In this document: one piece after another, positions 32,337 to 59,010 of the stretch
How positions within the stretch are numbered: position 1 is the stretch's first letter
Layout of the letters: every line of letters begins with the position of its first letter
Assembly (NCBI GenBank): GCA_050943615.1
Contig: JBMNPN010000004.1
Span: 1 to 59,010 of the forward strand
Source: Coriobacteriales bacterium
Lineage (GTDB): Bacteria > Actinomycetota > Coriobacteriia > Coriobacteriales > QAMH01
Direction of reading: 5' to 3'
Length of the DNA: 59,010 nucleotides
Notes under the pieces: model-generated
What the model was told of the DNA's origin: nothing
Databases searched by the model: none
What the model saw: only the letters and a program-made list of their open reading frames with translations
Position numbers and translations under genes: made by a program

Positions 32337-32462
32337 GCCCCCGGAGCCGGTCTTGCCCCCAGGTTCACGCTTCGCGTGAAAAGAAGGGCCGCTCGCTTTC
32401 GCGCTCCAAGGCGGCTTGAGCTGCTCCGCAAGGTCACCTGGGGGCAAGACCGGCTCCGGGGC
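32337..32462. repeat. Hairpin element family H1, copy 1 (26-27-bp terminal inverted arms)
   Basis: Arms GCCCCCGGAGCCGGTCTTGCCCCCAGG and CCTGGGGCAAGACCGGCTCCGGGGGC; about 70 bp is homologous to the reverse complement of 38547..38616. Confidence 0.85.
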
Positions 32463-32529
32463 TACCCTTCGATGATGAACAGGTTGCGATGCGGTTCTCC
32501 CATAGCTTCACTTAACTTTCAGCCGTAAA

Positions 32530-33058
32530 GATGCATCGAAAGGCCCCTGGTGGTCGACCACGCGGCGGGCTTCGGCGCAACTTGCATCGAGACGTCCCTA
32601 GTGGTCGACCACATGGCAGAGTTCGATGCGCTTAGCGTCTGGAAATTCGCCCATGTGAAAGGTCTCGATGCGCAATCCGCATCCAAACGTCTCTGGTGGT
32701 CGACCACGTGACAGACTTCGGCGCAACCAGCATCGAAAGGCTCCTGGTGGTCGACCACATCCGTGGGTTCGATGCGTCCCTTACCCAGCAACTCGCCCAC
32801 CTGGCAGACTTCGATGCGGAATCTGCACAGATGGTCGACCACGTGGCGGGCTTCGGCGCAACTTGCATCGAGACGTCTCTGGTGGTCGACCACGCGGCGG
32901 GCTTCGATGCACCTTCAACCCATTAGCTCGACCACGTACAGGACTTCGATGCGGAATCTGTGCCGAAACACCCATGGTGGTCGACCATGTAGCTGGGTTC
33001 GATGCGTCTTGCATCGAAAGGGTTCTGGTGGTCGACCACCTGCTGGACTTCGATGTGG
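32530..33058. repeat. Array of 11 palindromic units with core GTGGTCGACCAC (family A)
   Basis: Unit approximates GCATCGAA-N8-GTGGTCGACCAC-N9-TTCGATGC. Core spacings read by eye: 51,42,53,51,42,42,51,42,53,51. Confidence 0.92.
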
Positions 33059-33083
33059 CAGGAATGTGGGGCAGATGACATGA

Positions 33084-33126: not shown

Positions 33127-33201
33127 TGGAGCGGGTGACGGGACTCGAACCCGCGAATACCAGCTTGGGAAGCTGGGGCCTTACCACTTGGCAACACCCG
33201 C
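33127..33201 (-). tRNA. tRNA-Gly(CCC)
   Basis: Reverse complement is GCGGGTGTTGCCAAGTGGTAAGGCCCCAGCTTCCCAAGCTGGTATTCGCGGGTTCGAGTCCCGTCACCCGCTCCA. Confidence 0.96.
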
Positions 33202-38525: not shown

Positions 38526-38703
38526 GCCCCGTGGGGGGCCGGGGTTGTCCCAGGCGACTTTGCGGAGCAGCTCATGCCGGCTCGCTGCGCGAAAGCGAGC
38601 GGCCCTTCTTTTCGCGCAGAGCGCGAAAATCGCGAGCTGCGCACCGAGCCGGCATAAGCGGGTGCGGAGCGTGAGCCTGGGACAACCCCGGCCCCCACGG
38701 GGC
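38526..38703. repeat. Hairpin element family H1, copy 2 (29-30-bp arms, reverse orientation)
   Basis: Arms GCCCCGTGGGGGGCCGGGGTTGTCCCAGGC and GCCTGGGACAACCCCGGCCCCCACGGGGC. Confidence 0.85.
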
Positions 38704-38804
38704 GGCGAACTGTCCAGGGGATGCGGCGCTAGATCTATCAAGGCTACCGAACGCGGCCGACCACCTAGGCAAGGTTCTGTGAACGACGTGCTGGGGCACG
38801 CCCT

Positions 38805-39035
38805 ACCTGTGTCCGCGCACCAAGGCCGCTTGCGCGCAGCGTGCACGGAAACCTCGCTCGTGCGCGCACACTAGGACAGGTTCCGCGCGAGAATCCGCGC
38901 ACGTGAGGGAGTTCGGTGCAAATCGAGCCCAATTCCTCGCGGAAGTCCTGTTCGTGCGCGCACACCAAGGCAAGTTCGGTGCACCGCGTGCAGAACCTCG
39001 CTACGTGCGCGCGCACCAGCGGCGCTCCGATGCAC
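38805..39035. repeat. Array of about 5 palindromic units with core GTGCGCGCAC (family B)
   Basis: Cores at 38811, 38860, 38893, 38954 and 39005; flanks such as GCAGAACCTCG and TTCGGTGCA recur. Confidence 0.75.
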
Positions 39036-39039
39036 GGGA

Positions 39040-39232
39040 CGCATCGAACCCAGCCACGTGGTCGACCACCAGAAGGGTTTGGATGCAACCCGCATCGAAC
39101 CCAGCCACGTGGTCGACCACCAGGGGCACTTGGATGCAGGATCCGCGCCGAACCCTGCCACGTGGGCGAGCAACCGACCAGAATCCGCATCGAACCCTCC
39201 CACGTGGTCGACCACCCAGGTCCTCTCGATGC
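39040..39232. repeat. Family A array, 4 units, inverted relative to 32530..33058
   Basis: GCATCGAACCCAGCCACGTGGTCGACCACC occurs twice. Core spacings are 51,53,42, which is 42,53,51 read in the orientation of the first array. Confidence 0.9.
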
Positions 39233-47311: not shown

Positions 47312-47484
47312 GGTCCCAGCGGGGGTTTCGGATGGGCGATTTCGCAGAGCTGCTCGGGAGGGCCCCGCCCGCGCCCTTGCGAGGACTGTTTGAGCGCACG
47401 AAGTGCGCGAGTTCCGCAGCGGCGGGCGGGGCCCTCCCGAGCGGGAGCGGAGCGCTGAGCACATCCGAATCCCCCGCTGGGACC
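47312..47484. repeat. Hairpin element family H2, copy 1 (nested inverted repeats)
   Basis: Outer arms GGTCCCAGCGGGGGTTTCGGATG/CATCCGAATCCCCCGCTGGGACC and inner arms CTCGGGAGGGCCCCGCCCGC/GCGGGCGGGGCCCTCCCGAG; about 100 bp is near-identical to the reverse complement of 58905..59010. Confidence 0.85.
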
Positions 47485-58879: not shown

Positions 58880-58898
58880 GGGCTCGCAAGCCCCCCGA

Positions 58899-59010
58899 GG
58901 GGCGGCGGGGATGCGGATGTGCTCAGCGCTCCGCTCCCGCTCGGGAGGGTCCCGCCCGCCGCTGCGGAACTCGCGCACTTCGTGCGCTCAAACAGTCCTC
59001 GCAAGGACGC
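58899..59010. repeat. Hairpin element family H2, copy 2 (reverse orientation, truncated by the window edge)
   Basis: CGGATGTGCTCAGCGCTCCGCTCCCGCTCGGGAGGG...AACTCGCGCACTTCGTGCGCTCAAACAGTCCTCGCAAGG is the reverse complement of about 47372..47475. Confidence 0.85.

Follow-up and report, generated by a model that had tools for sequence, protein, structure and literature searches.

Dispersed hairpin repeats are common in bacteria, where they are normally lineage-specific and defined by conserved ends. Gene modules can also be framed by inverted recombination sites, as in the pdif modules of Acinetobacter plasmids, which lie between inverted XerC/D sites; the pdif site itself is 28 bp long and binds XerC/D. 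Among the hairpin repeats, the REP elements of Pseudomonas and E. coli are imperfect palindromes of 20–40 nt with a GTAG/CGTC tag, associated with RAYT transposases (Di Nocera et al. 2013, PMC3733652). The family described here reverses the usual repeat pattern, as its apex is constant across phyla and its stems are free in sequence, yet perfectly paired.

The window, i.e., the whole stretch of 59,010 nt that was analysed, belongs to a metagenome-assembled genome (MAG) of the Coriobacteriia, of 2.69 Mb in 205 contigs (G000). The first-pass annotation had singled out a hairpin element, H1, as a two-copy element separate from another hairpin, 'H2'. This separation could not be maintained. H1 and 'H2' are one family, of which four places were located in the window by nhmmer, and H1 has three copies, two in the window and one on another contig. 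These members and the arms of the first copy are positioned as follows, coordinates without a contig name being those of the window:

32339..32461, (-) in family orientation: H1 copy 1, a truncated member of the H1 subtype
32339..32364, unstranded: left arm of the outer stem of copy 1, partner 32436–32461, 26 nt, 100% complementary
32436..32461, unstranded: right arm of the same outer stem, with 71 nt between both arms
38526..38703, (+): H1 copy 2, full-length member of the H1 subtype, upstream of typA
47322..47475, (+): canonical member ('H2'), core GAGGACTGTTTGAGCGCACGAAGTGCGCGAGTTCCGCAG at 47381–47419
58884..59010, (-): canonical member, cut by the end of the contig and of the window, core at 58962–59000
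C54:16021–16159: third H1-type copy, in the same genome

Copy 1 contains a perfect 26-bp outer stem (P1), the 5′ junction TTGCGGAGCAG, half of the inner stem and an H1-type apex, as well as a small TCACGC-GAA-GCGTGA hairpin. Its 3′ inner arm and 3′ junction motif are missing, and it is a truncated derivative. The P1 stem of copy 2 extends over 28 bp, of which 22 bp are perfect (arms 38534–38555 and 38675–38696, 22 nt, 100% complementary), within a 65-nt imperfect palindrome spanning 38526–38703. It is followed by the 5′ junction GCGACTTTGCGGAGCAG, the inner stem CTCATGCCGGCTCG / CGAGCCGGCATAAG and the 3′ junction CGGGTGCGGAGCGTGAGC, with an H1-type apex that bears a GCGCG-A-GCGC hairpin. By our own estimate, chance would produce a perfect 26-bp inverted repeat within a span of 200 nt about 1e-8 times in 59 kb. 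Folding of the H1 copies as single-stranded DNA gave a z-score of -11.3 for copy 2; the values for copy 1 were -9.5 and -7.9, depending on the strand, and 0 of 200 shuffles folded as well.

The arms GGAGCCGGTCTTGCCCCCAGG of copy 1 and GGGGCCGGGGTTG-TCCCAGG of copy 2 differ by four substitutions and one single-base indel. The opposite arm in each copy is the exact complement; with perfect pairing inside each copy, any difference between the copies is mirrored on the partner arm. The compensatory changes initially reported between the two copies were thus confirmed. Their shared interior, first put at about 70 bp, corresponds in BLAST to 65 nt with 89% identity; the motifs quoted from it do recur, but as reverse complements in copy 2. 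The match lies on opposite strands, which means that the two copies are inverted with respect to each other. The H1 apex is devoid of the canonical core, so the H1 copies may be inert relics, and the subtype was not found among 60 related genomes. H1 is a minor, atypical and lineage-specific subtype of a larger hairpin family and is probably decaying; the main interest lies in the family, not in H1 itself.

Some features were also observed around the H1 copies. Arrays of short palindromic modules adjoin both of them (32520–33060 and 38720–39232), with the module cores GGTCGACCAC ('family A') and GTGCGCGCAC ('family B'). A linkage between family copies and these arrays was considered and set aside as weak, 3 and 4 of the 33 copies being nearby, while random placement gave means of 1.5 and 0.7. 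The segment 36949–38424, located between the acidic-protein gene and typA, holds about 400 nt of AT-rich DNA and an amidohydrolase gene. Both are absent in G003, a genome of the same genus, and in genus g4, where the flanking genes are adjacent; the segment looks like an insertion 5′ of H1 copy 2. Genes for tRNAs lie 50–700 nt from two family copies (window 33130–33201, near H1 copy 1, and L014 482–555, near C15:20621–20833), a proximity that may be due to chance.

Comparison of copy 2 with its own assembly by BLAST gave partial matches on other contigs, and a search with the motif TTGCGGAGCAG delivered a set of elements of about 200 nt sharing one layout. The nhmmer profile was built from seven members, namely six canonical ones and copy 2, with copy 1 left out. 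Its matches in the genome fall at 36 non-overlapping places, of which 33 have E <= 1e-3, and copy 1, although outside the profile, was matched at E = 4e-8. The family consists of non-coding hairpin repeats with at least 33 copies in this genome, and none of the Pfam spurious-ORF families was matched by translations of the repeat. Seventeen of the 33 copies abut contig ends; the repeat therefore breaks the assembly, and its true copy number is uncertain. The family would account for many contig breaks in these MAGs. The copy at 58884..59010 is almost identical to copies of contig C3, and since near-identical copies are found at the ends of C3 and C4, these two contigs may join there. A short form devoid of the centre was also observed in this genome (C72:3471–3548).

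The family is unnamed in Rfam 15 and in the literature searched. When the window and 12 other copies were scanned against Rfam 15, tRNAs alone passed the gathering score; the check for a known element, which had been proposed at the outset, returned none even at E <= 1, where only chance matches to miRNA/sRNA hairpins, far below thresholds, were obtained. Literature searches, which included strings of the core sequence and the terms REP, MITE, kink-turn, Coriobacteriia and Gallionella, gave no description of the element.

The canonical member is a rod of 150–210 nt. Its two long stems are copy-specific in sequence, with Watson–Crick pairing kept, and its apical module is almost invariant (GAGGACTGTYTGAGC-hairpin-GAGTTCCGCAG). 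The outermost part is the P1 stem, of 20–30 bp, inside which lies a junction helix where GCAGA is paired with UC-GGG-UGC, the GGG being bulged. Then come the inner stem P2, of about 20 bp, and a small internal loop. The apical helix UUGCG(A)GGAC / GUUCCGCAG includes a bulged A and a fixed G·U pair (G·T in DNA), and is followed by the asymmetric loop UGUYUGA / GA and by P3, a hairpin that is small and variable. Constancy of sequence is restricted to the irregular parts (bulges, loop and wobble pair), whereas the long stems vary, provided that they remain Watson–Crick paired. In one subtype, the core, invariant in other respects, is interrupted in its 3′ strand by about 26 additional nt (TCCCTAAAGGGACTAGCTTCGCGTCG); this form was seen at two loci in two species (L207 in G018, between rplK and rplA, and L211 in G012, between leuC and leuD).

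Covariation was analysed in an alignment of 41 family members from six genera. Paired cells amount to 95.1%, compared with 71.9% in column shuffles, none of the 500 shuffles being as high. The idea of a long stem kept paired while its sequence changes, first drawn from the two H1 copies, thus holds, and much more firmly than a pair of copies alone would have allowed. Twenty-five of the 37 pairs are changed on both sides, the cells with such double changes number 344 versus 100 in shuffles, and sliding the 3′ partner columns by 1–3 positions lowers pairing to 23–51%. P1 is too variable to be aligned; the self score of its outer arms is 20, compared with 5.6 across copies (99th percentile 10.5). 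With covariation extending over the family, the compensatory changes of H1 are the family's ordinary signature.

Near-invariant unpaired or irregular nucleotides, combined with covarying helices, are the usual signature of a functional RNA. The strand carrying GAGGACUGU could thus be transcribed and folded into a rod, the apical module of which (K-turn-like loop, tandem G·A, bulged A and G·U) would bind a conserved protein or itself be a small ribozyme, with stems for which double-strandedness would be the sole requirement, for instance if they served the flanking mRNAs as an RNase III or stability element. Several observations are in line with such a structured RNA. The apical G·U pair is kept in 40 of the 41 copies and the bulged A is fixed. 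Among the isolated mismatches of a wider set of 172 copies (G:T 60, A:C 33, other 102), G:T exceeds A:C on this strand (p = 0.007). Copies favour gene 3′ ends; of the 104 cross-phylum copies flanked by a called gene on either side, only 14 are located between divergent genes. In our reading, the loop CUGUYUGA-stem-GA also recalls the tandem-GA cores known from K-turns and hammerheads. A kink-turn layout agrees with the stems and with the GA/GA positions, and the flanking helices covary; however, the bulge has 5 nt instead of the canonical 3 nt, and RNAalifold favours a U–A pair using one A. Readings of the core as a group II intron domain V or as a T-loop were rejected by eye, their pairing registers being a misfit.

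The variable stems, however, do not favour G·U. It represents about 2.4% of stem cells, i.e., about 30% of the non-Watson–Crick cells, as expected under neutrality, and most stem positions show all four Watson–Crick pair types, one-sided changes being very rare. Selection of the kind usual for RNA helices is therefore not acting on the stems. With respect to genes, the orientation of the copies is variable, and since both orientations occur within operons, about half of the copies would be transcribed as the wrong strand. The absence of Rfam matches at E <= 1 extends to hammerhead, twister, pistol, hatchet and the K-turn-bearing riboswitches. Mimicry of rRNA was discarded as well: against a 6-kb stretch with the 23S rRNA gene of G006, the scores of the core and junction motifs do not exceed those of shuffled sequence. 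Presence or absence of copies in sister species and one in-frame insertion, both detailed below, point to selfish DNA, and we consider a structured RNA unlikely. Between the two options left by the first-pass annotation, a structured non-coding RNA or a MITE-like element folding as single-stranded DNA, the latter is the better fit; a host RNA agrees poorly with Watson–Crick stems, with the use of both orientations and with presence/absence between species.

On balance, and with a confidence only slightly above even, we favour the reading that the H1 hairpins are degenerate members of a non-autonomous, hairpin-folding family of mobile DNA, REPIN- or MITE-like and recognised by its structure. 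The modest excess of G:T, the fixed G·U/G·T pair and the bulges indicate that it is one strand in particular that folds. The element would fold as this single strand, presumably the one carrying GAGGACTGT, and a trans-acting enzyme might recognise its shape through the conserved bulges and the apex. Such shape reading would be analogous to that of integron integrases on folded attC sites, or of RAYT/TnpA on REP/IS200 hairpins. Arm identity would then be kept by correction or templating inside the hairpin, and not by slow selection on RNA pairs. One complete genome has 8 copies, too few for a comparison of leading and lagging strands.

Insights into mobility were obtained by comparing orthologous spacers in five species of genus g4. 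Empty sites, the search for which had been suggested with the first description of H1, were indeed encountered. The hisC|hisB spacer has a copy in G021 only. Three species have a copy in the rplK|rplA spacer, which is empty in G006. At leuC|leuD, G021 and G012 carry copies that differ in subtype and are oppositely oriented, whereas G006 and G018 have an empty spacer. None of the three filled-versus-empty comparisons disclosed a target-site duplication, and the compared sites show no clean excision footprint. The filled sites carry extra unrelated sequence, with unclean junctions, and simple insertion is therefore not proven. In a Paceibacterota MAG (L071, core 646–682), an 84-nt copy lies in frame within a GT2 glycosyltransferase gene, its own reading frame being free of stops (...AKTFENAGRKESRVFFGEDCLSDQDASSADEKNTRLFPLVRVFHKENGG...).

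The site upstream of typA was compared as well. It is occupied by H1 copy 2 in the window and by a canonical copy, in the same relative orientation, in G006 and G021; no copy is present there in G003, from the same genus as the window. The G018 copy (L177), compared with that of G006 (L178), has lost its centre by deletion between two GCATC direct repeats, the outer stem being left. Comparison of the G006 and G018 arms by eye shows differences at 5 of 25 positions, 4 of which are compensated, and this divergence is, again by eye, about that of the synonymous sites of the flanking gene. Arms that change at a synonymous-like rate while remaining perfectly paired suggest templating or correction from arm to arm instead of classical compensatory evolution. 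Such correction within the hairpin would explain how the arms diverge at this rate and yet stay paired.

Several copies of genus g4 look orthologous between species, being at the same loci, which implies that turnover is slow there. Combined with the very stable hairpins and the location of most copies after gene ends, this would also suit a host element that is domesticated or passive, immobile and vertically inherited, comparable to E. coli REP/BIME. The latter act as terminators, as mRNA stabilisers, or as binding sites for gyrase or nucleoid proteins. We consider this explanation very improbable. It conflicts with the filled and empty sites of sister species and with the single spacer occupied in opposite orientations, and the hairpins have no T-run of the kind found in intrinsic terminators. 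Moreover, the exact core is, within the class, confined to one family, although it occurs in many other phyla, a distribution that speaks against vertical descent.

The extent of this distribution was established with the search pattern GAGGACTGTYTGAGC-N6-30-GAGTTCCGCAG in species-representative genomes. The exact core is present in at least 118 genome stretches from many phyla, often in several copies. Its carriers include Gallionellaceae, other Burkholderiales, Rhodocyclaceae and several Gammaproteobacteria, many CPR/Patescibacteria lineages, Gastranaerophilales, Spirochaetota and Nitrospiraceae, as well as Omnitrophota, Desulfobulbaceae, Clostridia and Coriobacteriales. In all carriers the core caps a long hairpin, the stems of which are lineage-specific. 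A Falkowbacteria genome of 0.8 Mb holds eight copies, and the apical motif is identical over at least 26 nt between gut Coriobacteriia, iron-oxidising Betaproteobacteria and tiny CPR genomes. Within the Coriobacteriia, the exact core was detected in 3 of the 401 sampled genomes, all in the taxonomic family of the window; a BLAST match was obtained in 23 of the 32 genomes of that family and in one genome of a second one. This patchy spread argues for horizontal transfer of the repeat. Phages and plasmids were considered as vehicles and rejected: the 2.9 million viral contigs gave 2 matches, phage records none, and plasmids 3 that were partial and mostly weak.

Neighbouring copies follow a preferred arrangement, 32 of 37 pairs being head-to-head (-,+), many of them with a separation of just 150–400 nt. 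Their core-to-core spacing falls into two groups, one of about 150–500 nt without a cargo gene (empty dimers), the other of about 870–6,900 nt, enclosing an ORF or a gene cluster. The enclosed DNA has a GC content below that of its surroundings. The cargo genes are mutually unrelated (McrB-like AAA_5 ATPase, RelA/SpoT-type, KilA-N, DUF4357, IS4-type transposase), and some cargo proteins have no family match. Pairs often frame low-GC, defence-type genes. Solo copies predominate in G000 itself, where the following framed segments were observed:

C72:2705–3403: framed gene for a 232-aa secreted protein, low GC3, in this genome
C3:57579–57757 and C3:64486–64677: framing copies, inverted, 96.7% identical

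The C3 pair frames a 6.9-kb segment of lower GC3 with a gene for a molybdoenzyme of the DMSO-reductase family.

The single polarity, the two spacing groups and a low-GC cargo of defence or phage type that differs at each locus would all be expected if the head-to-head pair were the functional unit. A structure-specific recombinase would then insert or exchange single foreign genes at its centre, in an integron- or pdif-like manner, and copies found alone, H1 among them, would be remnants. However, no recombinase gene is linked to the pairs, and copies in Coriobacteriia are mostly solo and lie in the spacers of housekeeping operons. The H1 copies of the window are also (-,+), but they span the ecfA genes, the acidic-protein gene and typA; this is the ancestral gene order, and therefore no single cassette is framed. 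A recombination site or cassette frame as the primary nature of the repeat thus looks rather doubtful to us.

The preferred reading, that of a mobile hairpin recognised by structure, can be given a broader and more tentative form. The repeats may represent a cross-phylum class of such hairpins, with the apical module (bulged A, G·U/G·T pair and tandem-GA loop) serving as the handle for a widely distributed enzyme, or being itself catalytic. Head-to-head dimers would capture single defence-type genes, and this would constitute a third cassette system, beside integrons and pdif modules. We regard this extension as a possibility worth stating, with the odds against it.

The mobilising enzyme was not found among the neighbour genes or through co-occurrence with Y1/RAYT genes. 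All-against-all BLAST of 2,091 ORFs near the 118 cross-phylum loci disclosed no neighbour protein family shared across phyla, the matches being limited to translated repeat sequences and a generic ABC-ATPase cluster, and no parent IS with the ends of the family was found near these loci. Adjacency to lepA or typA was dismissed as a conserved neighbourhood, position and strand being inconsistent. RAYT/Y1 proteins were also rejected as mobilisers: their co-occurrence with the family is imperfect, and the Y1 genes of relatives are flanked by their own GAGACA...TGTCTC repeats. PF01797 had no match in G000, a MAG that may be incomplete, and Y1/RAYT genes are absent from 2 of 5 distant carriers. No family element was detected in any of the three Y1 loci scanned (L220–L222). 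One of these, L221 (G028, genus g4), carries at about 1420–2220 a gene for a RAYT-like Y1 transposase (about 260 aa) with its own hairpins on both sides (ATGAGACA...TGTCTCAT), and constitutes a separate REP–RAYT system in genus g4.

Should the proposed mechanism be correct, it would involve either a trans-acting enzyme not yet recognised or a nucleic-acid activity of the core, with a very wide host range. The family would also provide a natural case of arm-to-arm copying in hairpins, in which 'compensatory' changes arise without selection at the RNA level, and this would call for caution in covariation-based RNA discovery. Hairpin repeats would, in addition, be linked to the placement of defence-type gene cassettes.

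How the family relates to known systems can be described feature by feature. Its apical part shares with K-turns and hammerheads a succession helix, CUGUYUGA, helix, GA, helix, which permits tandem sheared G·A pairs by the apical hairpin; this is a resemblance only. It departs from the K-turn in the length of its bulge, and from the hammerhead in having neither CUGANGA / GAAA nor a three-way junction, since its core is CUGUYUGA ... GAG within a two-way junction. As in pdif modules, two inverted repeats resembling recombination sites frame single accessory genes, but nothing dif-like is present in the family and its location is chromosomal.

Like REP/REPIN sequences, the family is non-coding, multi-copy, intergenic and hairpin-forming, lies mainly after gene ends, occurs as head-to-head doublets, with no target duplication seen at the sites compared, and is probably read as folded single strands. 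In contrast, its members are five to ten times longer (150–210 versus 20–40 nt) and have no GTAG/CGTC, no common terminal tetranucleotide being visible among 12 full copies with flanks. Their variable part is the stems and not the apex, no cognate RAYT flanked by family repeats was found in G000 or at the Y1 loci scanned, and one core is common to many phyla, whereas each REP family is specific to a lineage. The MITEs and nested palindromes of bacteria (Correia/NEMIS, ERIC/IRU, RUP and the Rickettsia palindromic elements) are similar in size, hairpin potential, insertion polymorphism and operon sites. The family is, as MITEs are, small, non-coding, multi-copy and insertion-polymorphic, and the in-frame copy of L071 recalls the Rickettsia palindromic elements found within protein genes. 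It is, however, the termini that are conserved in MITEs, where they match those of the parent IS, while the P1 termini of the family are copy-specific and its centre is conserved.

The attC sites of integrons share with the family an apparent recognition based on structure, with bulged bases and one folded strand, as well as free stem sequences and single-gene cassettes. They differ in several respects: the ends of the family are without R''(RYYYAAC)...R'(GTTRRRY) or L''-L' boxes, the conserved part is apical in the family and basal in attC, and family copies are dispersed, with inverted pairs, whereas attC sites form one-direction arrays next to intI. The attC site is the closest counterpart for the recognition of structure on a folded strand, and REP/REPIN–RAYT systems and bacterial MITEs are the closest kinds of element known.
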